Virus record (IMG/VR): IMGVR_UViG_2506520037_000005
Coordinates: 1-39,263 of that record
DNA length: 39,263 nt
Reading direction: 5' to 3' (one strand)
Source: a virus
Taxonomy: Duplodnaviria > Heunggongvirae > Uroviricota > Caudoviricetes
A program made the position numbers and the translations under genes. Each line of letters begins with the position of its first letter. The first letter of the stretch is position 1. Positions 2,621 through 39,263 of the stretch are shown here, piece by piece. Below the pieces are notes generated by a model. That model worked only from the letters and a program-made list of their open reading frames with translations, had not been told where the DNA came from and ran no database searches.

Positions 2621-2732
2621 AACTGAAGTTGCCCTGAAAATGAAATTTTTTTGCACAACCGCAGAACTTTTCCGCAGGGCATCAGTCTTAATTAGTGCCA
2701 CTGCTTTTCTTTGATGTCCCCATTTTGTGGAG

Positions 2733-2776
2733 CCCATCAACCCCGCCATTTCGGTTCAAGGTTGATGGGTTTTTTG
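2733..2776 (+). terminator. Rho-independent terminator downstream of ybjL
   Basis: Perfect 10-bp inverted repeat cccatcaacc / ggttgatggg followed by TTTTTT. Confidence 0.6.
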
Positions 2777-2855
2777 TTGCCTGAAATTTAAGATGTTTAA
2801 AATCATGATGTTAGAAGCACTGTTTTTTAACGATGGCGACAAAATGGCGGCAGCG

Positions 2856-4265: not shown

Positions 4266-4747
4266 GGCAGCAGCCCTCCCACCGTTTTACTGATATCGCT
4301 TAAGGCAGACGTTGCCGTGTCCTGCAGATTATTCAGTTGCGCACTGAGATCACCGAACATATCGGACAGGGATTCATCCACCCGTTTGAGCGACAGGGTG
4401 AACTCAATCCGGCGCGGCATACCGTCGCGGAAAAACTCCGTTTTAGTCTGATTCAGTCCCTCAATCACATACATGCCGTAAATCGTGCCGCTGCCTTCAA
4501 TCAGGGGCCATGCTTTTCCCTGTTCTGCCATCTGCTCCAGAGCCAGCAACGACAGCCTGCCGCCCGTTATCTCCGGCATAAGAACACCAGAAAGCGTCAG
4601 CATGTCGTTGTCCGGTCCCAGAAACTGCGTGGACGGACGACGGTTTACCCGGCTGTTTGCCGCATGTCGCCAGCTGCGTTGATACTGCAGTTCCTGATAC
4701 GGAACGGTGCGCAGCATAAACACGTACAATCCCAGCACCATCATCAT
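4262..4747 (-). CDS. U: Tail protein U
   Basis: 161-aa ORF in the P2 gpU position with 4-bp overlap to D. Confidence 0.8.
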   Translation of the reverse strand: MMMVLGLYVFMLRTVPYQELQYQRSWRHAANSRVNRRPSTQFLGPDNDMLTLSGVLMPEITGGRLSLLALEQMAEQGKAWPLIEGSGTIYGMYVIEGLNQTKTEFFRDGMPRRIEFTLSLKRVDESLSDMFGDLSAQLNNLQDTATSALSDISKTVGGLLP

Positions 4748-7700
4748 GCGTCGTATCCCCCCTGATCGCTGTAGTTACTCCTGGCTTTTGCCTTCAGCCT
4801 GCGTTCACGTTCATCAAGCTGGCGTGCCACCTCCCGCGCAATATCCTGCGCACTTTGTCCTGGCTGCGTCTGAATGATGATCTGCGTCGGTGCCTCAATC
4901 CGGTGAACGGGCGGCACAGTGGCTGCACGACTCACCATCGCTTCGCCGCCTTTCGCGGGAAGTGCCAAAGGATGCAACGGTGGAAGCTCTGCAGGCGCGG
5001 CAGCAACGCCCATCATTCCGGCAACAACGGCAGCCAGTGCAGCTGTATTTCTCCGGCTGGTCACATTTGCCGGGCCGTTAACAATTTCCGGCCCGTTTTC
5101 ACCGACGATGCCAAACTGCCCGCGCGGGATATAGCCGCCGCTGTCATACATCCCCGCAAAGCCATATCCCCATGATGGAAAACCACCCGATGGCATCATC
5201 ACTTTACCGTCTGCATTCACCGTCGCAGGTTGCTGACGCGTCACGCTTTCCGGCAGTTTCGCCTTTGCAGCCTCTTTACTGACAATGCCGAGTTTCTCCA
5301 GCAACCAGGAAACGCCGGATTTCAGGGAGTCCAGCGGATGCATGACCATATTCAGCCCTTCCGCCAGTGCCTCCCCGAATCGTCGCCCCATTGCCGCTGC
5401 GCTCTGCAGTTCGGCAGAGGTCGACTTAACGGGCGTCAGCAGATCAGTAAACCAGCCCCACAACGCCTGCACTTTGTCGCCAATCCACTGAAACACAGGC
5501 TTAAGTGGTTCGAATGCTGCACTGATGGGACCTGCCGCCGCTTTGAATCCTTCCACCACACCAGCGAGAAATGCGGTGATGGGTTGCCAGTATTTCCAGA
5601 CAACCAGCGCCACGCCCGCCAGTGCAGTAACCACAAGACCTATCGGACTGAGCAGAGCACCTAACAGACCAGATACGGCATACAGAGCAACGCGCAGCAT
5701 CGCCAGCGGACCGGATGCCAGTACTCGCAGCACCGCGCCTGCGGCAGCCAGTCCACCGCGTAGTGCTGCCAGTGGATTCATAAACATCACAGCAACAGCA
5801 CGTAAACCGGATAATCCAGACCGCAACAGTGCAACCGGCACACCTGCTACAGTTTTCAGGACATTCCCCGTCAGTGATGCCGTGCGGCGCAAAGACGACA
5901 ACGGCGCAGTAAGTAAACCCGCTGCGTTGCCCGATGAAGCAAGCCCGCGTCGCAGCAGTGCCAGTGGAGCGCCAGCTAACCAGGACAACGCGCTGCTGGT
6001 TCGTGTTACTGCTGCCGTAACGGAAGGTAACGTTTTGATACCCAGCACAGAGAATCCCAGACGGATGACTGCCAGCGGTCCCAGCACTGCAGCCAGCGCC
6101 ACCGCTAAGGTGCCGAGGCCTACGGTAACCGCAGCCACAACAGCCGCTACTTTCATCAGTGTGCCTGTCAGTTCCGGGTTAGCTTCCACCCAGCGGCGCA
6201 ACGCCCCCGTGATGCTTTTCACCGTGTACAGAATATCCATCAGCGGCTGGCGCAGCGTTTCGCCCAGGCTGCTGAAGGTATTCTGCGCTCCGGTTTTAAC
6301 CAGCAACCACTGAGCAGAAAGTGAGTCCTTGTTGATGTCGGATTCTTTCTGCATGGAGCCGAGCGCATCATTGCCCGCTGACAGTTTTAGCTGGCGCTGT
6401 AGTTCCGGCAGGTTGTTTGCCAGTTTCGCCGCGTCATCGCCAAACTCTTTACCAAACAACATGGTCATGGCAGACAGACGCTTGTCCTGCGGCAGTGCGT
6501 TCACCTTCTCCAGCACGCGCTGGATGGTTCCCATCGCATCCTTCGTCATCTGCTTTTCAATCACTTCAGGATTGAGTTTCAGCAGATTCATCCCTTCAAA
6601 GAAACTCTTGCTTTGCATGGTGGCAATGGACAATTCACGCACCATCGCGTTTGCTGCACTGGCTGCAACCTCCGGCGCAGCGCCCAGTGTCAGGAAGGTG
6701 GAACCCAGCGCCGCCGCTTTACGATAATCCAGACGGTCAGCCACACCGCCCAGGCGTTGCATCACATCAATGATGTCCCCCCCTTTCGACATGGCGTTAT
6801 CATCCAGATAGTTCAGCGCATCACCGAGCTGTTCAATATTGCGGGTAGGGATTTTGTAAAGCTGGGCGATTTTCCCCAGACTTTCTGACAGTTCATCCGC
6901 TGGCAGCTCAAAGGCTGTTGCCGCCTTTGCTGCCGTGCTGGCGAAGGCCAGCAGGTCACGTTTCTGGTCTTCCCAGCTGTCGTCAGGGTTTGCGACGTTC
7001 ATGCGCGCACCACCTTCAACCAGTGCGGCGAAGTCCACAGCACCGTTTTCCATCGGCAACTGTTCGCTGGCAGCCTTGATGGCATCCTGCATTTCATAAA
7101 AACGTGCAGTACGGTTTCCATTATCGTCACGCAGACCATTGACCTGCTTTGCCACACCTTTCATGGCATCTTCCATGCTGGTATAGCTTTTTACTGCCGC
7201 CATCACTGGCGTCCCCATTGCCAGCCCTGCAGCCGTGGTAGTGGCTCCAGCTCCTGCAATACGATCGCGCACCTCCAGCGAACGGGCATAACTGGCACGC
7301 GCTGCATTCATCCTGCGCTGAGCTTCCCCCAGTCTCTTCAGCCGCGCCTCCTGTTTCGACAGTTCCTGGTTATAACGTGATGTTTCACGGGCTAAACGGG
7401 CAGTTGCTCCCGCATCATCTTTCGCAGAAATTCCCGCCCGGTACAGTTCTGCACGCACAAGCGCCGTTTGCTTCTGCAAATATTTTTGTTGTTCTTCCAG
7501 GCGTTGGACTGCCAGCGTTTGCCGACCTAAAGCCACAAGATGCCTTTGTGATGGTTGTTCCATCGCCTCCAGCTCAGAGCTAAGCAAATTAGCCTTCTGT
7601 CTGGCATAGTTCAGCCTGTCGCCTAACTTCTTGTTATCGGCCTGCAGCTTGCGAAATTTTTCCAGGCTGTTACCCGCCTGATTGAGTTGCTTTAATGCGT

Positions 7701-11141: not shown

Positions 11142-12398
<1,257 letters not shown>

Positions 12399-12535
12399 TG
12401 AAGTAATCCCCGGTCTTCATGACGTGACCGGGGCTATTGAATTACCGGAGGACAACTGGTTTTTTACTATGACAGAAATTCCTCAGGGCATGGAGCTAAC
12501 AATTAATGAGAAAGGCGAACCAATACTAATTGAGG

Positions 12536-13141
12536 TTAATCAGTCTCAGGGAATACAGGCCAAATAATATCAGGCGCGGTGCTGGTATCTGTTGCCGTCA
12601 CCGCGTCAGTGTAATCCAGCACAGCGTTAAGCCGGGTTGTTTCTGCCTGCGTCAGTTTCCGCCCGGCCTGTAATTTCAGCTGAATCAGACTAATGGAAGC
12701 CATTGCTGCATCAATCAGTGACTGACGCTGTGCTTCTGCCGCTTCTACTGCGGCACCGTGTTGTGCCTCAGTATCCGTCACCCATTTCTCACCATCCCAT
12801 TTATCGTATGGCGTTAATGGGGCGATAGTGGTTGTATTATCAGGGTAATTACCCGGAGCTGTGATTTCTTTTGATTCTCCTGTTGCGGTGCTAAAGACGA
12901 TTTCACCGCGATGGTCTGGCACATATTCCCATGAGTTAAAATCTGCAGAACGGCAGATTGTATAACCAGCTTTGTATGCGCCTGGAGCATCTAAACAGGA
13001 ACATGCCGGAATGCCGACACCAACGGCAAGATATTCAGTCGATATGGAAATATATTCCCGTGTTTCACCATCATAATTATAGACAGTAATATTCCCCGCC
13101 TTCGTGGCAATAAACTCGCTATTTAATACAGTGCTATCCAT
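12536..13141 (-). CDS. G: Tail fibre assembly protein (gpG/Tfa)
   Basis: 201-aa ORF immediately downstream of the tail fibre gene with 1-bp overlap. Confidence 0.8.
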   Translation of the reverse strand: MDSTVLNSEFIATKAGNITVYNYDGETREYISISTEYLAVGVGIPACSCLDAPGAYKAGYTICRSADFNSWEYVPDHRGEIVFSTATGESKEITAPGNYPDNTTTIAPLTPYDKWDGEKWVTDTEAQHGAAVEAAEAQRQSLIDAAMASISLIQLKLQAGRKLTQAETTRLNAVLDYTDAVTATDTSTAPDIIWPVFPETD

Positions 13142-14655
13142 TATGCAGCCCTCACAATGTAGTTAAATGCGATGTTGCGTGGACGGACACCGAAATAAGA
13201 AGTAACACCATTCATTGTCAAATTTCCAGAGCCAAAAGCGGTAAAACCAGAACCAGCATTAACTGCCGAATCCGCGTTTCTGACAAAGTTTTTGGGAGGT
13301 GAACCGGAGACACCAGCCGAAATATCATCAGCATTACCGCCATTGCCGTGGTGGTTAGTTATCTTTGTTTCCGCCTGCGCCGTCAACAAACCTCGTCCAG
13401 AGTCAACCCCGCGCCCGTCATCCCAGCCGCGAATAAACTCACCACGTAAATCAGGCAATTTATTTGCCGGATAAGCCTTTGCCAGTTCCGGGTATTCTTC
13501 AGCAGAAAAAGCCGCGCCGTTGCATTTCAGCCAGCCTGTTGGCGGAGTGGCGGAAGGCCATGGAACAGGGACACCAACGGGTAATGCAGAGCCTTCTCCC
13601 AAACCAAGGTATGCGAGAAGACCAGCTACATCCTTTCCACTCAAATTGGTAAGCGTATTGTCCAGCGGTTGTTTACCTGCCAGCGCATTAAGCATTGTCG
13701 TGGCAAAGTTCGGATCATTCCCCAGTGCCGCCGCCAGTTCGTTCAGTGTATCCAGTGCCGCAGGTGCAGAACCCACCATTGCTGCAATCGCTGATTTCAC
13801 AAAAGCTGTAGTGGCAATCTGTGTATTGTTGACCGACTGTGCCGCAGTAGGTGCTGTTGGCGTTCCGGTGAGTGCCGGACTCGACAGCGGTGCTTTTAGT
13901 GCCAGCGCATTGTTAATGGTGGTACTGAATTTCGGGTCATTGTTAATGGCTGCGGCAATTTCTTTCAGTGTGTCCAGCGTGGCTGGCGCACCGTTAATCA
14001 GAGCAGTAATAGCGGCCTGAACAAACTCAGTGGTCGCAATCCGCGTGGTGTTATTTCCTGCTGCAGGCGTCGGCGCTTTTGGTTCTCCGGTAAATGTCGG
14101 ATTATGTTTCTGCGCATACTGGGTATGAGGATCTTGTGCGGCAATGTGGTTTCTCATCTGGTCATCCACATACAGCTTTAATTCCAGGACTTCATCATCC
14201 ACGTATTTACGGGTTGCCAGCACTACAGCAGGGTCGATTTTCAGGGTGATATTGTCCGTACTGCTGGTAATCAGCACCATGCGCACGGTCTGGGTGCGCC
14301 CGCTGCCTTCAGCCAGTTGCGGCTTATAGCTTTCCGGGCAGTTGCCCACGGCAATCAATGCCCCGGACTCATCAAACAGGCCCACTTCACGTATCCACCA
14401 ACCGCCCTCGTTTTCAGGGATCACCTGTTCAGCAATAATCTGGCTGCTGTTCTGCGGGTCGATATAAAGCATATTCAGCGCAGCCCGGCGTTTCTCATTT
14501 ACCAGTGCCGTCTGCTTTGCGTCCGGCGTTGGCAATACTCCGCCGCCATCGCCCACCGCCATATGGGTAATTTTTAGCGGCACACCGAGCGCGGCGGCGC
14601 TGGCAAGTTTCGCCGCGCCAATATCCGTCAGCAGGGTATAAAATTTTGTGCTCAT
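13141..14655 (-). CDS. H: Tail fibre protein H (constant N-terminus plus invertible variable C-terminus)
   Basis: 504-aa ORF with repeated alanine-rich motifs (AAAINNDPKF / AAALGNDPNF) and a WLKCNGAAFS...YPELAKAY fibre tip; a crossover site lies within it. Confidence 0.85.
   Translation of the reverse strand: MSTKFYTLLTDIGAAKLASAAALGVPLKITHMAVGDGGGVLPTPDAKQTALVNEKRRAALNMLYIDPQNSSQIIAEQVIPENEGGWWIREVGLFDESGALIAVGNCPESYKPQLAEGSGRTQTVRMVLITSSTDNITLKIDPAVVLATRKYVDDEVLELKLYVDDQMRNHIAAQDPHTQYAQKHNPTFTGEPKAPTPAAGNNTTRIATTEFVQAAITALINGAPATLDTLKEIAAAINNDPKFSTTINNALALKAPLSSPALTGTPTAPTAAQSVNNTQIATTAFVKSAIAAMVGSAPAALDTLNELAAALGNDPNFATTMLNALAGKQPLDNTLTNLSGKDVAGLLAYLGLGEGSALPVGVPVPWPSATPPTGWLKCNGAAFSAEEYPELAKAYPANKLPDLRGEFIRGWDDGRGVDSGRGLLTAQAETKITNHHGNGGNADDISAGVSGSPPKNFVRNADSAVNAGSGFTAFGSGNLTMNGVTSYFGVRPRNIAFNYIVRAA
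13594..13619. other. Invertase crossover site, left (inside gene H)
   Basis: TTCTCCCAAACC AA GGTATGCGAGAA, an inverted copy of the site at 10767-10792 with a matching central dinucleotide. Confidence 0.75.
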
Positions 14656-17125: not shown

Positions 17126-17143
17126 TGTGACATTAACTACACA
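17126..17143. promoter_or_regulatory. Candidate Ogr-binding dyad (TGT-N12-ACA) upstream of V
   Basis: TTGTGACATTAACTACACAAAAA, centred only 55 bp from the V start codon, so assignment to PV is uncertain. Confidence 0.4.
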
Positions 17144-17147
17144 AAAA

Positions 17148-18071
17148 ATGACAACTAACACCAATACCCCAGAAGCAGCTGAGCAAGATAATATTGTCCC
17201 CATGGATGCAATGAATGATCCCATCAATCCCCCACCTACAAAGAAGGAGAGGGATGAATACAAAAAAAAACAGCAAGAAAGAATTGGCAAATACGTCGTT
17301 GGTGGAACAGATTTGGGTGGAAACACCATAAGTAAAATTTATTCACGTGGGGATGAATATGTCATTTATGAAGTAGCCAATCTTCCGCCTCATGAGTCTA
17401 TGCTCGTGTTCATAGACTCAATCATTGAGGAGGATGACAGTAAGATTGATAGATATCATGCTTCAAAAGAGCACTTTGATGAGTTTATTTCACATTGCTA
17501 CAAATACAACTGCTCTTCTATTTATAAAAAAAGAGCAGCAACAGTTATGTCAGCAACAATACTTGGAAAAAATGATATAAACAAAAATAACTTCGCCGCA
17601 ATAAATAGAGACATTAAAAACGATTATGAAAACACAATGCTTGGAAGGAATTTATATCAATCAGGAGCCATAACTTTAGCATTGATATTCATCATCCTTG
17701 CATTGATAACATATTTGGCTAGAGATTCTAATTTCATAAAAGCTAATCACTTTATTCCAGTGGTGTTATACGCCGCTTCCTTTGCTTCCATCGGGGGGTT
17801 TATTTCTGTATCCCTAAAAATAAAAAGCCTCCATACAGACAGAGAACTAAAAAAGAAAACTTATTTCTTCTATGGTGCGGAGAGAATACTCCTTTCAATG
17901 ATGGCTGGCGTACTTGTATACTTTATGCTCAAGGGGAATATTATCTTCGGGTTTATGAATAATAGTAGTGACATCTCATTCTCCATTTATGTGATTTGTG
18001 CGCTTTCTGGATTCAGTGAAACATTGATACCGAATACATTGAGAAACCTTGAAACCAAATCCGAAATTTAA
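17148..18071 (+). CDS. Hypothetical membrane-anchored protein (soluble N-terminal region plus four predicted TM helices), opposite strand to the late genes
   Basis: AT-rich ORF inserted between V and S; own terminator downstream; possible -35/-10 (TTGATT/TATATT) upstream. Start is ambiguous between GTG 17127 and ATG 17148, and no Shine-Dalgarno is seen. Confidence 0.6.
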   Translation: MTTNTNTPEAAEQDNIVPMDAMNDPINPPPTKKERDEYKKKQQERIGKYVVGGTDLGGNTISKIYSRGDEYVIYEVANLPPHESMLVFIDSIIEEDDSKIDRYHASKEHFDEFISHCYKYNCSSIYKKRAATVMSATILGKNDINKNNFAAINRDIKNDYENTMLGRNLYQSGAITLALIFIILALITYLARDSNFIKANHFIPVVLYAASFASIGGFISVSLKIKSLHTDRELKKKTYFFYGAERILLSMMAGVLVYFMLKGNIIFGFMNNSSDISFSIYVICALSGFSETLIPNTLRNLETKSEI

Positions 18072-26908: not shown

Positions 26909-28690
26909 TCATTTAAAACGTGTTGCAATATCTGCTGCTTCGATAACTGTTGCTTTTACGGTATTATCGCCAGCACGATAATAAATATCCCCATCATAAC
27001 TAGAATAAGATGCTAGAAGTGGAATTGTAATAACTATAACTCCATAACCATAAAAGTCATTATAGTCAATCAAACTCACCACTTGTGATTTAAGAGGCTC
27101 ACTCAAAGCAGATTTTTTCAACTCATCGCAAAAACGTCTATAATATTCTTCCATTGATATGCCGAGTTTAATAGCTTCTCTTTTAACACCAACAACACTT
27201 CTCTCACCAACTACATGTGCATCTATATCATCAAGCTCTTTTACTCTACTTGTATCACTTGGTTTATCTGTTACACCAAGCAATAACTTACCAACTACAC
27301 CGTTCTTGTTACCTTTACCGATGTTAGCAATAGCACAAATTGTGGAGAATATTTTCTCATGAATGCCATCATCAATAGTTCGCTCTCCGCCTAACATCAA
27401 CAAACCCTGTTTCAGTTCATAATTTGCAAGCTCTATTTCAGATCTTCGTAAAATATCCTCAATATCCACCGTATTGTGAGAATTATAGATATGACTGCTA
27501 TCGGCGCTATCAATAAAGTTATCTTTAATCAAGCCTATGATAGAATTAATATTCTTTCTTCTCTCTTCCCCACCAGTAGCAGATCTTTTAGTATCTAGTC
27601 GAGTGACTATATTATTAAGATTGTCTTTTACACCTTTATAATTATTAATCTTCTTATTTTCTTTAATGAGTAATTCATGAAAAGCAATAAATAACACAGC
27701 AAATATGGCTGGGAAAGCATTTGTAGTACGTTTAGTAAAGATTAAATCCCTGAGTTTAATTTCACCGTCACTATTACATACTTTTGTTATTTCCTGGATG
27801 CAGAATTTAAACTCTTCTGCAAATTTTCCTTCACCATAAACATTAATAGCAGAGCTAATACGACTATACTCTTCATCTTCATTATTATAAATCTGATCAA
27901 GCGCATCTTTGGAACGATCTATTAACTTACCTCCAACAATACAAGCTGCTATATCTGCAATGCATTGCTCATCCATACTGTCACGAAGGTCTGTTGAACG
28001 TAAGATCCCATGTTTTACCCAAAATACTTCTTCCGACTGAATTTGGTAACCATGTTTAGTTAGTGGCAAATCAATGCTAATAGACGGCATTTGCTCTAAA
28101 AGCAATATGTCGTCAGATACATCCCCCCTGATAGAACAGGCAATATCCCTAACCATATTTGAAAATTTATTTTGTATACCAGCCTGGCGCCTTTCTTGAT
28201 CACTAAGTCTATGCCCGTATGTATTAATTCTATCAAAAACATCATTTATTTCGTTCTCAGTCGCATTACGCATAATGGACATTGCAAGAGAATAATCCAA
28301 TAACTGAGTAACCTCACGCTGACTTAAAAGATTATCAGCTTTCACTGCAACAAACTTACCTTCATCCGCTCGATTTTTCGCTGTGGGAAAAGCGTCCAGA
28401 TTAAAACGTTTTCCATCAAGTGATTCATATCCTGTTTCGATGAAAGACATTATTGCATGTAATCTTTGTAGGCCATCAATTATTTCATATGTGCCAGGAT
28501 CATTTTCCCTTTCCGCGAGAAGAACTGCAGGAATTGGATATTTTTTTTGAATGGATTCAATTAATTTTTGTTTCTCTATTGCAGTCCAAACTAATTTTCG
28601 TTGATAACGTCTATTAACAAATATCTTACCTTCAGTAAACCATGAATAAATAGTTTGTATAGAAGTTGTTTGCGGTAATAGTTCAGCCAT
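26909..28690 (-). CDS. DUF262 (ParB-like nuclease superfamily) protein, 593 aa, candidate anti-phage defence protein
   Basis: N-terminal DUF262 signature motifs (NRRYQRKLVW; IIDGLQRL, a DGQQR variant); AT-rich codon usage; lies in the Q-to-A variable region. No recognisable HNH motif in the C-terminal half. Confidence 0.7.
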   Translation of the reverse strand: MAELLPQTTSIQTIYSWFTEGKIFVNRRYQRKLVWTAIEKQKLIESIQKKYPIPAVLLAERENDPGTYEIIDGLQRLHAIMSFIETGYESLDGKRFNLDAFPTAKNRADEGKFVAVKADNLLSQREVTQLLDYSLAMSIMRNATENEINDVFDRINTYGHRLSDQERRQAGIQNKFSNMVRDIACSIRGDVSDDILLLEQMPSISIDLPLTKHGYQIQSEEVFWVKHGILRSTDLRDSMDEQCIADIAACIVGGKLIDRSKDALDQIYNNEDEEYSRISSAINVYGEGKFAEEFKFCIQEITKVCNSDGEIKLRDLIFTKRTTNAFPAIFAVLFIAFHELLIKENKKINNYKGVKDNLNNIVTRLDTKRSATGGEERRKNINSIIGLIKDNFIDSADSSHIYNSHNTVDIEDILRRSEIELANYELKQGLLMLGGERTIDDGIHEKIFSTICAIANIGKGNKNGVVGKLLLGVTDKPSDTSRVKELDDIDAHVVGERSVVGVKREAIKLGISMEEYYRRFCDELKKSALSEPLKSQVVSLIDYNDFYGYGVIVITIPLLASYSSYDGDIYYRAGDNTVKATVIEAADIATRFK

Positions 28691-35764: not shown

Positions 35765-35968
35765 TCATGCCGAAAGTGCATCTACTGTCAAAGCAGCCAT
35801 GTTAATCATGACTTTTTCACGCTTCTTATCTTTACGGAGACGATGCCGCGGAAGTCGGCCATCAGCCAACATGTCATTGATCGTATCAACCGGAAGGCCT
35901 GTGAGTTCGCTATAACGTTCAATTGTGACGTGTGGTGTGTTCAGAGTGATTGAAATGTTTGGGTTCAT
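35765..35968 (-). CDS. apl: Apl/Cox-type excisionase and lytic-switch regulator
   Basis: About 67 aa from internal ATG (MNPNISITLN...) with an HTH-like segment; first gene of the rightward early operon; SD AAGGAA. Confidence 0.7.
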   Translation of the reverse strand: MNPNISITLNTPHVTIERYSELTGLPVDTINDMLADGRLPRHRLRKDKKREKVMINMAALTVDALSA

Positions 35969-36058
35969 GGTGCAACATTCCTTCTTTAATTCGGCTTGTG
36001 GCGAGCCGTTGTTTATCGTGATTAGTTGTGAAGGCTCCAAAAGAAGACTTCGAGGTCA

Positions 36059-36088
36059 ACTTTAAGATCGCTTTTGGAATCTGTCAAT
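36059..36088 (-). promoter_or_regulatory. Candidate early lytic promoter pR (-35 TTGACA, 17-bp spacer, -10 TAAAGT)
   Basis: Consensus -35 and acceptable -10 read on the minus strand upstream of apl, in the face-to-face position expected for a 186-type switch. Confidence 0.45.
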
Positions 36089-36114
36089 GCAATTTAGATT
36101 GTTTTGGAGGACTC

Positions 36115-36678
36115 TTGAATTTCAATAGCGGCGGAAAGAAAGTGATTGAACGTTTGGTTGAGGCGTATGGTTTCACCACTCGTCAGGCCCTTTGCGACCA
36201 CTTAGGGGTTTCAAAGAGCACAATGGCAACCCGCTACATGCGTGACATTTTTCCAGCAGATTGGGTACTTCAATGCGTTGTAGAAACTGGTACTTCAATT
36301 GATTGGCTGGTATCAGGGAAAGGTGAGTTAAAAACCACAGCAGTCAACTCTTTGGTAGACGTTGAAACTCGCGAACTAAAAAATGGAGAGGCTATTGCAC
36401 TTGGAACGCACAAGATTGATCCAGTCTTTCTTCTCAATGAAATAAAATCTGCATTAGCGATAAAAATTAACCAACATGTTTACATTTGTGACCGAGAAGA
36501 CACTACCATTTCTGATGGTCAATGGTTGGTGGATATAGAAGGAAAACTGAGTATTAAAAAAATCAATTTGATACCAGTCAAAAGAGCAATGGTATCTGGG
36601 GATGGTTTTTCATTTGAATGTGATATTAGTGATATAAAACCTATAGCTAAGGTTCATACCGTAATCAGTGAGGCTTAA
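36115..36678 (+). CDS. cI: CI-type immunity repressor (186 CI-like, N-terminal HTH)
   Basis: HTH segment (TTRQALCDHLGVSKSTMATRYMR) and about 190-aa size. Start is uncertain: the ORF opens at 36028, but an in-frame TTG at 36115 follows a GGAGG. Confidence 0.7.
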   Translation: MNFNSGGKKVIERLVEAYGFTTRQALCDHLGVSKSTMATRYMRDIFPADWVLQCVVETGTSIDWLVSGKGELKTTAVNSLVDVETRELKNGEAIALGTHKIDPVFLLNEIKSALAIKINQHVYICDREDTTISDGQWLVDIEGKLSIKKINLIPVKRAMVSGDGFSFECDISDIKPIAKVHTVISEA

Positions 36679-38130
36679 ATGGATATTGAGTGGAATTGGG
36701 ATCAAGATGACGAATTTCTTGGTGAAAAATTACCTGCAGATACATTGGACAGAAAAAAGTACGCAAAATATCTTTATGAAATCTGTGCTGCACGCGGTGC
36801 TAAATCCAATCTCGTAGTTAACATTAATGCGGAATGGGGGGCTGGAAAAACATATTTTACTAAACGCCTAGCCAAGACAATTTCCCACTACCATCCCACA
36901 ATATACATTGATGCTTGGAAAGAAGATTTTACTGAAGACCCATTGCTCACAGTATTTAGTGGAATTAAAGATCAATTATCTGGTCAATCTGATAGCTTTA
37001 CTGCTTTAATCAATTCAACAATTGAGAATGTCGGTCCTTTGCTAAAAACAGCGGCACCAGTTATTATTGATGGATTAATACAAAAGTTCACAGGGGTTGA
37101 CTCCTTTTCTAACCTAACTAAAGACTTATCATCTAAGCTAATAGAAATACACGCAGAAAAATCAACGAGAATAGAGACAGTAAGAAAAGGAATTAGTCGT
37201 TGGGTTGAATTCATTGGGCGAAAAGATGGAATAGATAAAGAGCTTCCATTATTTATAATAATTGATGAACTTGATAGATGTAGGCCCGATTTTTCCATTA
37301 GTCTTTTAGAAATCTCCAAGCATATTTTTAACATCCCTGGCGTAGTATTTATTATTGCCACTGACACCCAACAATTACAGCATTCAATAAAAGTTATATA
37401 TGGCACTAATTTTTCAGCAAGTCATTATCTAAGCAGGTTTTTTGACCGTCGATTCCTTCTCCCAACGCCAGAATACAAAGACTTACTATTAACAAAAACA
37501 GGTGAAAACATAATTTCGGAATTTAATTCTTTACGTGAAAAATTAATTCCATGCCCACAAGACATCACATCATTTGTTAAAAATTGTTCATCCATATTAT
37601 TATCCATAAAAATAAACATCAGAGACGCTGTAAAAATATACGAGAGGCTAATAGACATACTTATCACGTCAAATAAAACATTTGACCCCAATCTAATGTT
37701 GATATTATCTGCATTTAATTTCAAAGATCATGATGTATATGCAAAAATAAAATCAAAAGAAAAGCTAATTCCTAGTCCTCTCAACACAGAAATAGATTTA
37801 TCATTTGATTTATCTTATGAAACTACACAAGTCAAGTACTTCCAAGCTAATGGTGGTGTTTATAGTAATACGTATAAACAAAAAGAAATTTCAACAAATG
37901 TTCTATTTTACATAGAGACTGCTTGGAACACCTTAACGATAGCAAGAACCGCACCTGTTGGCACGCGACCTTACAATACTCCAGAACTTTGGATGGAAGG
38001 AGAGTTGTCTCAGGAGGAATCATTAGCGAACTTTCTCAAAATGGGATACGCCAAAAGCCGGTACAATGAAAGTGAACTAAAAATTCATCAATATTTCGAT
38101 TTAATTGAACTGAGCACAACATTTGATTGA
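36679..38130 (+). CDS. KAP-family P-loop NTPase (PifA-like), candidate phage-exclusion protein
   Basis: Walker A EWGAGKT and the KAP-type Walker B FIIIDELDRCRP; ATG follows the cI stop codon directly; AT-rich. Confidence 0.75.
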   Translation: MDIEWNWDQDDEFLGEKLPADTLDRKKYAKYLYEICAARGAKSNLVVNINAEWGAGKTYFTKRLAKTISHYHPTIYIDAWKEDFTEDPLLTVFSGIKDQLSGQSDSFTALINSTIENVGPLLKTAAPVIIDGLIQKFTGVDSFSNLTKDLSSKLIEIHAEKSTRIETVRKGISRWVEFIGRKDGIDKELPLFIIIDELDRCRPDFSISLLEISKHIFNIPGVVFIIATDTQQLQHSIKVIYGTNFSASHYLSRFFDRRFLLPTPEYKDLLLTKTGENIISEFNSLREKLIPCPQDITSFVKNCSSILLSIKINIRDAVKIYERLIDILITSNKTFDPNLMLILSAFNFKDHDVYAKIKSKEKLIPSPLNTEIDLSFDLSYETTQVKYFQANGGVYSNTYKQKEISTNVLFYIETAWNTLTIARTAPVGTRPYNTPELWMEGELSQEESLANFLKMGYAKSRYNESELKIHQYFDLIELSTTFD

Positions 38131-38185
38131 TGTATGAGTTCACCTAAACATACATTGACCACTGTTTAAACATACAGTTAAATTT

Positions 38186-38210
38186 AGCCCTCAGACATGA
38201 GGGCTTTTTT
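38186..38210 (+). terminator. Rho-independent terminator immediately upstream of int
   Basis: Stem agccctca / tgagggct followed by TTTTTT, then the int ATG. Confidence 0.65.
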
Positions 38211-39263
38211 ATGGCAGTACGAAAACTCGACACAGGTAAATGGATATGCGAATGCTACCCCGCCGGGCGCAGCGGACGGCGTGTGCGTAAGCAATTCGCC
38301 ACCAAAGGTGAAGCGTTAGCATTTGAACGGCACATAATGGAGGAAACTGAAGCTAAGCCCTGGCTGGGTGAATCGGTAGATCGCCGAACTCTGAAAGACG
38401 TCGTTGAACTCTGGTTCAAACTGCACGGCAAATCTCTGACCGCTGGCGAGCATGTTTACGACAAGCTGATCCTGATGGTCGAAGCTCTCGGAAATCCCCT
38501 CGCCACCGATTTAACATCCAAAATGTTCGCGCACTATCGCGATAAACGCCTGACAGGAGAGATCTACTTCAGCGAGAAATGGAAGAAAGGAGCAAGCCCG
38601 GTCACTATTAATCTGGAGCAAAGCTATCTAAGTAGTGTTTTTAGCGAACTATCCCGCCTGGGCGAATGGTCGTATCCGAACCCACTGGAGAACATGCGAA
38701 AATTCACCATCGCAGAAAAAGAGATGGCATGGCTTACCCATGAGCAGATTGTTGAATTGCTGGCTGATTGCAAACGTCAGGACCCAATTCTGGCACTGGT
38801 AGTTAAGATATGCTTAAGCACAGGCGCACGCTGGCGTGAAGCCGTAAATCTTACCCGCTCGCAGGTGACCAAATACCGAATTACCTTTGTAAGAACGAAG
38901 GGGAAGAAAAACAGAAGCATCCCTATCAGTAAAGAGCTTTACGAAGAGATCATGGCGCTTGATGGGTTCAATTTCTTCACAGACTGCTATTTTCAATTTT
39001 TATCCGTGATGGAAAAAACGTCTATCGTGCTGCCTCGCGGTCAACTGACACACGTTCTGCGCCATACGTTTGCGGCGCACTTCATGATGTCGGGTGGAAA
39101 CATCCTGGCCTTACAAAAAATTCTCGGACACCACGATATAAAAATGACTATGCGTTATGCGCATCTGGCACCGGATCATCTGGAAACGGCGCTCCGTTTC
39201 AATCCTCTGGCAACATTGCCAAGTGGCGACAAAGTGGCGGCAGCGGTTGGCATTACCCCGTAA
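38211..39263 (+). CDS. int: Tyrosine integrase (P2/186 family)
   Basis: 350-aa ORF; C-terminal catalytic region with R...HxxR...Y (VLRHTFAAH...MRYAHL); stop codon is the last 3 nt of the window. Confidence 0.9.
   Translation: MAVRKLDTGKWICECYPAGRSGRRVRKQFATKGEALAFERHIMEETEAKPWLGESVDRRTLKDVVELWFKLHGKSLTAGEHVYDKLILMVEALGNPLATDLTSKMFAHYRDKRLTGEIYFSEKWKKGASPVTINLEQSYLSSVFSELSRLGEWSYPNPLENMRKFTIAEKEMAWLTHEQIVELLADCKRQDPILALVVKICLSTGARWREAVNLTRSQVTKYRITFVRTKGKKNRSIPISKELYEEIMALDGFNFFTDCYFQFLSVMEKTSIVLPRGQLTHVLRHTFAAHFMMSGGNILALQKILGHHDIKMTMRYAHLAPDHLETALRFNPLATLPSGDKVAAAVGITP

Follow-up and report, generated by a model that had tools for sequence, protein, structure and literature searches.

Defence roles have been published for PifA, QatA, RdrA, EF_KAP and Reve, all of which are relatives of the KAP type. 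PifA of the F plasmid, the bacterial founding member of the KAP family, excludes T7, for which the reported mechanism is membrane depolarization with nucleotide leakage, and RdrA is the ATPase of RADAR and works with a deaminase partner. EF_KAP has a non-abortive anti-phage activity that depends on its Walker B motif; Reve, which comes from a hotspot in a P4 satellite and is a KAP system of one gene, lowers the plaquing of Drexlerviridae by as much as ~1e-6. Transmembrane (TM) helices, which published KAP/YobI descriptions locate within the P-loop domain or beyond it, are typical of many KAP members but are not universal, and PifA has been reported without them. The PDC families of PADLOC are computational candidates found by 'guilt-by-embedding' and are mostly unvalidated. 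Published hotspot reports also cover the region between the repressor gene cI and the integrase gene int. In K139-type Vibrio phage, orf2 and glo, annotated as 'involved in phage exclusion', lie between these two genes; Old and PD-lambda-1, the latter being the validated SNIPE nuclease, are established exclusion/defence genes.

The window (the whole analysed stretch of 39,263 nucleotides) contains at 36679..38130 an intact ORF for a 483-aa KAP-family P-loop NTPase (RefSeq WP_000350737.1) on the plus strand, as are all features given below with one exception. The gene is the int-proximal cargo in the cI–int hotspot of a 186-like (Peduoviridae) prophage. Pfam KAP_NTPase (PF07693) matched the protein with E = 8e-36 and 124.2 bits (curated gathering cut-off 20 bits; aa 25–267 on profile positions 1–231 of 293), PHROG 8614 with E = 1.6e-62 and the PADLOC model PDLC04959 (PDC-S20) with E = 4.2e-82 and 275 bits (aa 20–411 on profile positions 18–413 of 464). 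Three more PDC-S20 models matched at 1e-30 to 1e-48 and the next family, PifA, at 3.8e-12; PDC-S20, PifA, QatA and PDC-S49 were the sole PADLOC families matched. The protein was assigned to PDC-S20 on a near full-length profile match standing above that of any other defence family, and the gene has no obligate conserved neighbour, as expected of this single-gene type. Both Walker motifs (GxxGxGKT and hhhhDExD) are intact. Walker A, EWGAGKT, occupies aa 52–58 (36832..36852), with W53, G54, G56 and K57 invariant in 47 homologues, and Walker B with its flank, IIIDELDRCRP, occupies aa 193–203 (37255..37287), with D196, E197, L198, D199, R200, C201 and P203 invariant in the same number.

The KAP P-loop signature read from these two motifs in the preliminary description is borne out by the PF07693 match, and its remarks that no TM insertion and no partner gene are obvious also hold: the highest 19-residue Kyte–Doolittle mean was 1.53, in a β-strand region, so that no TM helix was found in the protein, and no neighbour besides cI and int was conserved across the examined loci. 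Lack of a TM helix does not exclude KAP membership because PifA is likewise reported to have none. The protein had further been called short for the family; it is in fact of normal length within its subfamily, in which the PDC-S20 profiles comprise 446–464 positions and the homologues 483–505 aa.

A 100% identical protein is encoded in E. coli W, the genome paper of which stated that nothing noteworthy is encoded on the mobile elements, and the gene was found in 12 of 5,426 complete E. coli genomes. With matches counted at E ≤ 1e-30, the wider profile family has 5,433 cluster representatives and is spread across Enterobacterales prophages. No close homologue was found in the isolated phage genomes searched (best identity 30%). 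The fil gene of the KAP-bearing prophage is annotated as a pseudogene, and the distant IS3/tail-fibre region of the RefSeq record did not match the arrangement in the window. A search of the literature on PDC-S20, on P2-like hotspots with KAP NTPases and on the prophage of E. coli W returned no paper naming PDC-S20 and no experimental test of this gene or of any PDC-S20 member.

With PDC-S20 itself the gene shares length and single-gene architecture, and there is no difference in kind; the validated KAP defences resemble the protein in the NTPase core only. The PifA match spanned aa 26–269 on positions 22–261 of a 720-position model and was confined to the core, falling short of full-length homology. 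PifA is like the present protein in being borne on a mobile element and reported without TM helices, but the C-terminal halves are unrelated and the PifA mechanism cannot be assumed to apply. RdrA provides the closest solved fold, with chains of ~780–850 aa compared with 483 aa, an identity of 11–18% and a TM-score of only 0.35–0.44. No RdrB deaminase gene lies adjacent to the KAP gene and no RdrA model was among the PADLOC matches at E ≤ 0.01, so the pairing of an RdrA-type ATPase with an adjacent RdrB that marks RADAR is absent. Similarity to the KAP core of QatA was weak (PADLOC 3.4e-8; NCBIfam 36.1 bits, where the cut-off is 600), and none of QatB, QatC and QatD was found near the locus, which is not a QatABCD system. 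Reve and EF_KAP are, like this gene, single-gene KAP-domain proteins on mobile elements, and their anti-phage activity has been shown. EF_KAP differs in its two N-terminal TM helices and its Firmicutes origin. Reve, the sequence of which was taken from a preprint supplement, was rejected as a close relative: the Walker A region alone aligned (BLASTP 5e-4 over 48 aa; hhalign 107 columns), and Reve weakly matched PDC-S49 and not PDC-S20. A different likeness connects the gene to K139 orf2/glo, PD-lambda-1/SNIPE and Old, which lie on the same strand and in the same position, with the repressor gene on one side and int on the other. These encode unrelated proteins (a periplasmic protein, a membrane nuclease and an ATPase–TOPRIM nuclease), and the likeness is one of location and presumed expression, not of homology.

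The GC content of the KAP gene is 34.2%, with a minimum of 28%, compared with 50.2% for the window; a value of 34% is typical of horizontally moved cargo. The AT-rich block begins within the 3′ half of cI. Comparisons gave pN values of 0.16–0.29 against pS values of 0.75–0.85, corresponding to a dN/dS of ~0.04–0.14 with synonymous sites saturated, and purifying selection on the gene is strong. A chance ORF is ruled out because 483 codons are kept open in AT-rich DNA, the HMM match is strong and the gene is under purifying selection. Between Walker A and Walker B, AlphaFold2 (AF2) placed an insert at aa 105–180 (36991..37218) consisting of two helices, residues 105–138 and 143–180; it is predicted with low confidence (pLDDT < 50 at aa 121–147) to be a soluble helical hairpin. 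In the variable C-terminal half (aa 262–483; 37462..38127) a helical region comes first and then an α/β domain, which has a conserved tail. This C-terminal domain proved hypervariable, and aa 262–483 are proposed to be the sensor/specificity region. An effector fold, whether nuclease, NADase, pore or another, was not detectable in the protein, and a PDB sequence search with the family profile gave no match at E ≤ 0.1.

The gene immediately upstream is a 186-type cI repressor gene (36115..36678; Pfam Phage_CI_repr 8e-30 and Phage_CI_C 7e-24). Its probable true start is the TTG at 36115, which yields 187 aa, has GGAGG ahead of it and is in register with the M/V-DFSSGGKK beginning of CI homologues; the longest ORF and the RefSeq entry start at GTG 36028. 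At the junction (36670..36681) a GAGG Shine–Dalgarno sequence (36670–36673) lies within the last codons of cI, 5 nt before the ATG of the KAP gene, and the TAA of cI (36676–36678) abuts that ATG (36679–36681) with zero bases between them, just as had been noted earlier. The same arrangement (GAGG-n5-ATG with TAA|ATG) occurs in E. coli JNE151685, in Leclercia and in an Enterobacter kobei remnant. The abutment with its embedded Shine–Dalgarno sequence is kept at 58–100% protein identity (the window and relatives L003, L004 and L006), and in about nine viral contigs the CI ORF ends one base ahead of the KAP start.

Upstream of cI, a candidate pL-type maintenance promoter was placed at 35950..35978 (−35 TTGAAA, 17-nt spacer, −10 CAACAT), the spacer of which contains the complement of the apl start codon, as in phage 186; in the curated 186 annotation pL is TTGCGA-17-CATGAT. 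A candidate pR-type lytic promoter converging on it (36059..36087, minus strand; TTGACA-17-TAAAGT) scored 10/12 in the consensus scan and lies in a position equivalent to that of 186 pR, with a predicted separation of the pR and pL start sites of ~67 bp compared with 63 bp in 186. In the curated 186 annotation the pL/pE 'lysogenic operon' runs through cI into the next, overlapping gene. No terminator was predicted between cI and the KAP stop codon, and no promoter between cI and the KAP gene. The shared strand, the zero-nucleotide junction, the lack of a predicted terminator or promoter and the 186-like promoter geometry point to expression in the lysogen: the KAP gene is most likely co-transcribed with cI from the pL-type promoter, and from pE at establishment, and is probably translated by coupling to termination at cI.

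Among full-length KAP relatives in viral contigs, CI was upstream in 28/28 and int downstream in all 27 evaluable cases; even at 34% identity the gene keeps this place, invariably adjoining int, and at most KAP loci cI and int are the only neighbours. The contents of the slot were surveyed in 80 viral contigs with a 98%-identical Int. At least eight slot states were found behind this integrase, including Old (1e-234), PD-lambda-1 (2e-120), PDC-M18, the PDC-S20 KAP gene and unknowns, and a distant slot allele (L115) also matched PDC-S20 (6e-78). The sister phages 813R9 and KP12 carry PD-lambda-1 at the same place (3e-120); homology with 813R9 is lost at 36021 and returns at 38145, cI and the KAP gene having been exchanged as one block. 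The slot therefore behaves as a cargo hotspot, in which variable genes that include known defence genes lie between conserved flanks. Location alone is no proof of defence, since the commonest occupant is a 63-aa secreted-type peptide to which no role is assigned and several cargos are without a defence annotation.

The right flank of the slot is a P2/186-type integrase gene (38211..39263; Pfam Int_N 2e-32 and Phage_integrase 7e-22), and no att repeat of the last bases of the window was found within the window; the core lies past its end. Ahead of int, a leader (38145..38210), starting where homology with a differently loaded phage resumes, is an element of the backbone and not of the cargo. 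It contains a promoter-like TTGACC-N18-TAAATT (38155–38184) with an internal ACTGT/ACAGT inverted repeat, and a hairpin (38186–38205; 8 bp, five of them GC) followed by T6, a terminator-like match just before the int ATG at 38211. The only Shine–Dalgarno-like sequence of the leader, GAGGG, sits inside this hairpin. The leader, ~80 nt in length, is conserved downstream of KAP, of PD-lambda-1 and of cI itself, and its hairpin is retained with different sequences in Serratia and Yersinia. The preliminary description had seen an AT-rich block ending in a strong terminator just before int; the block and the hairpin are there, but the hairpin does not mark the end of the cargo, as it belongs to the int leader and is found with any cargo or none.

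We favour, as the probable explanation, that the gene is by itself an anti-phage system and encodes an NTPase that the lysogen produces from the transcript of the repressor. Its earlier designation as a candidate exclusion or abortive-infection gene is reinforced by PDC-S20 membership and by the defence-hotspot slot; the idea is not new for PDC-S20, because PADLOC already lists the family. From the observed gene, family, junction, slot behaviour, selection and fold we infer co-transcription, coupling, the defence role and each step of the following scheme. Translation coupled to cI would mean that every lysogen makes the protein at a level tied to repressor synthesis. The product would be a soluble single-chain NTPase that protects the lysogen, and therefore the prophage, from other phages. 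Its conserved N-terminal P-loop core, which resembles RdrA and ORC, probably oligomerizes and may work as an NTP-driven switch, and the fast-evolving C-terminal α/β domain would recognize a phage-made component. The output is a guess, as no effector domain or partner is recognizable; the lack of a detectable effector fold makes it most likely that a phage or host complex is remodelled or sequestered in an NTP-dependent way, or that nucleotides are consumed, and the end result would be a replication block or abortive infection.

It is unlikely, with a small but real chance, that the protein is one part of a multi-part system and inactive alone, its partner lying elsewhere: a coiled-coil gene of ~320 aa, other prophage cargo such as the GmrSD enzyme, or a host factor. 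Such a dependence would have precedents in RdrA, which needs RdrB, and in QatA, which needs QatBCD; the closest solved fold is that of the deaminase-partnered RdrA, QatA models match weakly, the protein itself has no detectable effector fold, and a gene for a coiled-coil protein of ~312–338 aa lies directly upstream of the KAP gene in Yersinia and in contigs L039, L045 and L060. In most contexts, however, cI and int are the sole neighbours, a copy in Aeromonas stands alone and PADLOC models PDC-S20 as a single gene. The coiled-coil gene was rejected as an obligate partner, since it also occurs alone in the slot (L140) and is absent from the window. A role in the prophage's own life cycle rather than in general defence, by modulating maintenance, induction or integration or by acting against P4-like satellites or homo-immune relatives, is distinctly unlikely. 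The strict cI–int position (28/28, down to 34% identity), the block exchange of cI with the KAP gene relative to 813R9 (36021 to 38145) and the apparent coupling of expression to CI would suit it, but many 186-like phages, 186 included, do without the gene, which makes it dispensable for the switch. The KAP ORF is moreover intact in the E. kobei prophage remnant, where cI is lost and int is broken, it occurs outside prophages, and in Ewingella it adjoins a small HTH regulator. KAP alleles also do not co-vary with Int/CI types: in Klebsiella L013 int is 80% identical (DNA) to that of the window and the KAP protein only 36% identical.

The E. kobei remnant bears equally on whether this is a lysogenic-conversion or addiction gene unrelated to phages, that is, a host-fitness factor or a toxic NTPase held in check by co-expression with CI and so stabilizing the prophage; persistence of the gene without cI speaks against a CI antidote. 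We regard this reading as improbable. Cargo slots do hold non-defence morons such as the 63-aa secreted peptide, and no defence effector is recognizable, but the family signal is defence-associated, the slot mates include Old and PD-lambda-1, and a hypervariable C-terminus suits an arms race better than housekeeping. A hitch-hiking gene in decay, serving no function at present, is very improbable: the gene is rare in E. coli (12/5,426 complete genomes) and its prophage has a fil annotated as a pseudogene, yet the 483-codon ORF has stayed intact in AT-rich DNA, the catalytic motifs are all invariant, purifying selection is strong with saturated synonymous sites, and the family is large (5,433 representatives). 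A tentative variant, to which we give a low probability, holds that the gene has long resided in the lysogenic operon of 186-like phages and is not interchangeable cargo, and that its activity might depend functionally on the repressor or on lysogeny; it keeps its place in 28/28 cases, and in the window's own clade it directly abuts cI. Such a resident could be a lysogeny guard or an anti-satellite or anti-relative system, and may work by a new effector-free mechanism, e.g. by assembling into a ring, driven by NTP, on a phage protein or on DNA.

The cI–int junction of 186-like phages of E. coli, Klebsiella, Yersinia and Serratia is a documented defence hotspot, presumed to be expressed in the lysogen, which holds Old, PD-lambda-1/SNIPE, PDC-M18 and the PDC-S20 KAP gene. 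If the protein is active as a lysogen-expressed anti-phage NTPase, it would be the first validation found for the PADLOC candidate PDC-S20. Should it shape the phage sensitivity of E. coli W, this would matter for fermentation robustness, since E. coli W and derivatives such as KO11FL are industrial strains. An active protein would also give studies of mechanism and structure a minimal KAP NTPase, isolating how a KAP/RdrA-like core senses and stops phage because it has no membrane anchor, enzymatic effector or partner; and if the effector-free reading is true, it would show what a bare KAP/RdrA-like core does.

The 483-residue open reading frame of the KAP gene is present at 36679–38130 on the plus strand. 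Its ATG at 36679 follows the cI stop codon (TAA, 36676–36678) with zero spacer, as had been read in the preliminary description, and a GAGG at 36670–36673 lies 5 bases 5' of this ATG. The GC content of the gene is 34%, with a trough of 28%, compared with 50% for the window. The product scored 124 bits with Pfam KAP_NTPase, for which the cut-off is 20. Both Walker motifs noticed earlier, A and B, were confirmed, and no core residue of either varies among 47 homologues. No hydrophobic stretch good enough for a transmembrane helix was found in the whole 483 residues, in agreement with the earlier remark that there is no obvious transmembrane insertion.

In PADLOC the protein falls into candidate family PDC-S20 (4.2e-82, almost full length), a far stronger match than PifA (3.8e-12, limited to the NTPase core) or QatA (3e-8); the NCBIfam QatA model, whose cut-off is 600 bits, gave 36. 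The protein belongs to the KAP NTPases and to PDC-S20, and is not an orthologue of PifA, RdrA, QatA or Reve. PDC families are computational 'guilt-by-embedding' candidates, mostly unvalidated, and PDC-S20 was named in no paper in a literature search. The family comprised 1,427 proteins in a word-indexed search and 5,433 representatives of clusters formed at 50% identity (E ≤ 1e-30), and full-length relatives (483–505 aa) occur throughout Enterobacterales and also in Aeromonas. Identity to the window protein has a median of 49% in the NTPase core, 31% in the next helical region and 21% in the C-terminal alpha/beta domain, and conservation returns in the final ∼18 residues. The AlphaFold model (pLDDT 81) has a P-loop core, a low-confidence helical hairpin between Walker A and Walker B (residues 105–180) and a well-defined C-terminal half, which reached a pLDDT of 91 when modelled separately.

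The gene 5' of the KAP gene encodes a 186-type CI repressor (Pfam Phage_CI_repr, 8e-30; Phage_CI_C, 7e-24), past which an Apl/Cox-like gene and a cII (CP76) gene lie on the opposite strand; the gene 3' of it encodes a P2/186-type integrase. The longest open reading frame and RefSeq start cI at GTG 36028 (216 aa), so that the gene would extend over the pR region. CI homologues begin M/V-DFSSGGKK..., aligned to TTG 36115; this plus-strand start, preceded by GGAGG at 36106–36110, gives 187 residues, and the cI annotation is probably too long. A pR-like promoter (TTGACA-17-TAAAGT, 36087–36059, minus strand) faces a pL candidate (TTGAAA-17-CAACAT, 35950–35978, plus strand) whose spacer holds the complement of the apl start codon, as the pL spacer of phage 186 likewise does. 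The predicted pR and pL start sites are ∼67 bp apart versus 63 bp in 186, and the switch region has the 186 layout; the curated annotation of 186 gives a pL/pE lysogenic operon. On the plus strand from cI to the KAP stop codon no promoter-like or terminator-like site was found, save internal promoter matches at chance level, so the economical reading is that KAP would be co-transcribed with cI and translationally coupled to it.

The preliminary description had placed the gene in an AT-rich block ending in a terminator just before int. The low GC content stands, as does a hairpin with a T6 run (38186–38205, plus strand) adjoining the int ATG, but the hairpin belongs to int and not to the cargo. 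It is part of an ∼80 nt int leader (38145–38213, plus strand) with, in order, a promoter-like site (TTGACC-N18-TAAATT, the spacer carrying an inverted repeat ACTGT/ACAGT), the hairpin, which holds the only SD-like GAGGG of int, and the int ATG. This leader is kept in the int lineage whether KAP, PD-lambda-1 or cI without cargo lies 5' of it, which rules out the hairpin as the end of a cargo block. Serratia and Yersinia retain the hairpin too, with other sequences and no T-run. A transcript from the leader promoter would start inside the 5' arm, and the hairpin could therefore form only on read-through transcripts; speculatively, the leader may be a device silencing int on the cI transcript.

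Against the nearest phage, vB_EcoM-813R9, homology ends at 36021 and returns at 38145, cI and cargo differing as a single block. In 813R9 and KP12 the position of KAP is taken by a 558-aa protein matching PD-lambda-1 (3e-120), the experimentally characterized SNIPE membrane nuclease. Across 80 viral contigs with a 98%-identical Int, the slot between cI and int held a 63-aa Cys-rich secreted-type ORF (n = 46), PD-lambda-1 (558 aa, n = 17), Old (589 aa, PADLOC 1e-234, n = 6), a PDC-S20 KAP allele (505 aa, n = 4), a ∼324-aa coiled-coil protein (n = 2), PDC-M18A plus PDC-M18B (n = 2), a 488-aa unknown (n = 1) or an empty spacer (n = 1). The 63-aa ORF (4621–4812 in viral contig L102, and 45 similar contigs), the commonest occupant behind this integrase, has a signal-peptide-like N-terminus and a Cys-rich tail (MLGKVFFVVLSCSLLLNPLTTYARNYPCSGKKGG...) and gave no Pfam or PADLOC match. 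Phage 186 has no cargo here, its int start overlapping the cI stop (TAATG), and a K139-type Vibrio phage carries orf2 and glo in the slot, annotated as 'involved in phage exclusion'; a cI–int hotspot has already been published for Vibrio P2-related phages. Past int towards the attachment site, a Klebsiella prophage (L013, 7802–9024) has a SocA_Panacea-domain gene and a 249-aa unknown, which looks like another cargo site; an int–att cargo site is mentioned in a 2026 P2/P4 preprint.

When the survey was anchored on the KAP family instead (full-length relatives in viral contigs, identity ≥34%), a CI gene lay 5' of KAP on the same strand in 28 of 28 loci and int lay 0–166 nt 3' in all 27 that were evaluable. 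This context was not found around more distant KAP proteins of other phages; within the family, the place next to int in the lysogenic operon is strictly kept. At ≥58% identity the clade retains the TAA|ATG junction and its embedded GAGG, and more distant alleles have a 7–79 nt spacer, or one or two additional genes, between cI and KAP. A coiled-coil family of ∼312–338 aa, without defence annotation, occupies the slot alone or stacked 5' of KAP (L011, 3986–4969; L039, L045, L060, L140); its occurrence alone rules it out as an obligate KAP partner and makes it stacked cargo. A further ∼160-aa ORF lies 5' of the coiled-coil gene in L060 and directly 5' of KAP in L031. Up to three cargo genes can occupy the slot, with KAP int-proximal in the stacked loci seen.

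The KAP protein has the same sequence (100% identity) as WP_000350737.1, found in E. coli W and its derivatives; among 5,426 complete E. coli genomes, 12 carry the gene. Two ∼4.83 Mb assemblies labelled 'E. coli DH5alpha' (search matches H26, NZ_CP026085.1, and H36, NZ_CM135829.1) carry it at 100% identity; since a W-type prophage is not expected in a K-12 derivative, these may be mislabelled strains. The ∼36 kb 186-like prophage lies between rcdA and ybjL, with an RybB sRNA gene (2700–2778, plus strand; Rfam, 105 bits) just outside its ogr end; its att core was not found within the window. It may be the 'Rybb*W' of the E. coli W genome paper, in which the W mobile elements were said to be without genes of particular note.

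A second cargo gene (26909–28690, minus strand) encodes a protein of 593 aa with a GmrSD-type restriction endonuclease domain, which matches PADLOC NsnA (8e-31) and PD-T4-2_A (2e-18); it lies between the replication and portal genes, the classic P2 tin/old hotspot. A 307/314-aa ORF on the opposite strand inside the late (tail/baseplate) operon (17127–18071, plus strand), with no Pfam or PADLOC match, may be a further one. Beside the tail-fibre and tail-fibre-assembly genes (region 12008–14655) are an IS3-family orfA (12008–12355, minus strand) and an Rfam isrC match (12201–12323, minus strand); the layout differs from NC_017635, where an IS3 transposase and an invertase-type recombinase gene are annotated, and would fit an invertible tail-fibre segment in the other orientation.

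With moderate confidence, we read the KAP protein as a lysogen-expressed single-protein anti-phage NTPase, and its genomic context is the decisive evidence. RdrA, ORC and STAND proteins offer an analogy, on which the conserved core would probably be an oligomerizing NTP switch and the hypervariable C-terminal domain likely a sensor; the most likely output is considered to be either NTP-dependent remodelling or sequestration, or the consumption of nucleotides. PifA-like membrane effects are a possible but unsupported output. No effector is recognizable in the protein, and a rival explanation is that it needs a missing partner; in Aeromonas KAP is a solitary gene, and in Ewingella it adjoins a small HTH regulator of a kind linked to defence systems.

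The gene might instead serve the life cycle of the phage itself or act against satellites, or it might be a conversion or addiction gene with no part in defence. KAP is intact in a prophage remnant from Enterobacter kobei (L006/L007, 4159–7594) in which cI is reduced to its final ∼94 nt and int is broken, and it appears to have outlived its phage; the remnant is at the same chromosomal site, with a GIY-YIG_2 gene 5' of KAP and a stop codon interrupting the 5' end of int. A dead gene is the remaining rival; pN is 0.16–0.29 with saturated synonymous sites, dN/dS is ∼0.04–0.14 where computable, and purifying selection is strong.

KAP-type defences are known (PifA, QatA, RdrA, EF_KAP, Reve), as are cI–int hotspot cargos, and PADLOC would already flag this gene, so its kind is known already. 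What is mildly unusual is a KAP protein with neither transmembrane segment nor effector and with no validated close relative, and the strict int-proximal placement of its family in the lysogenic operon.
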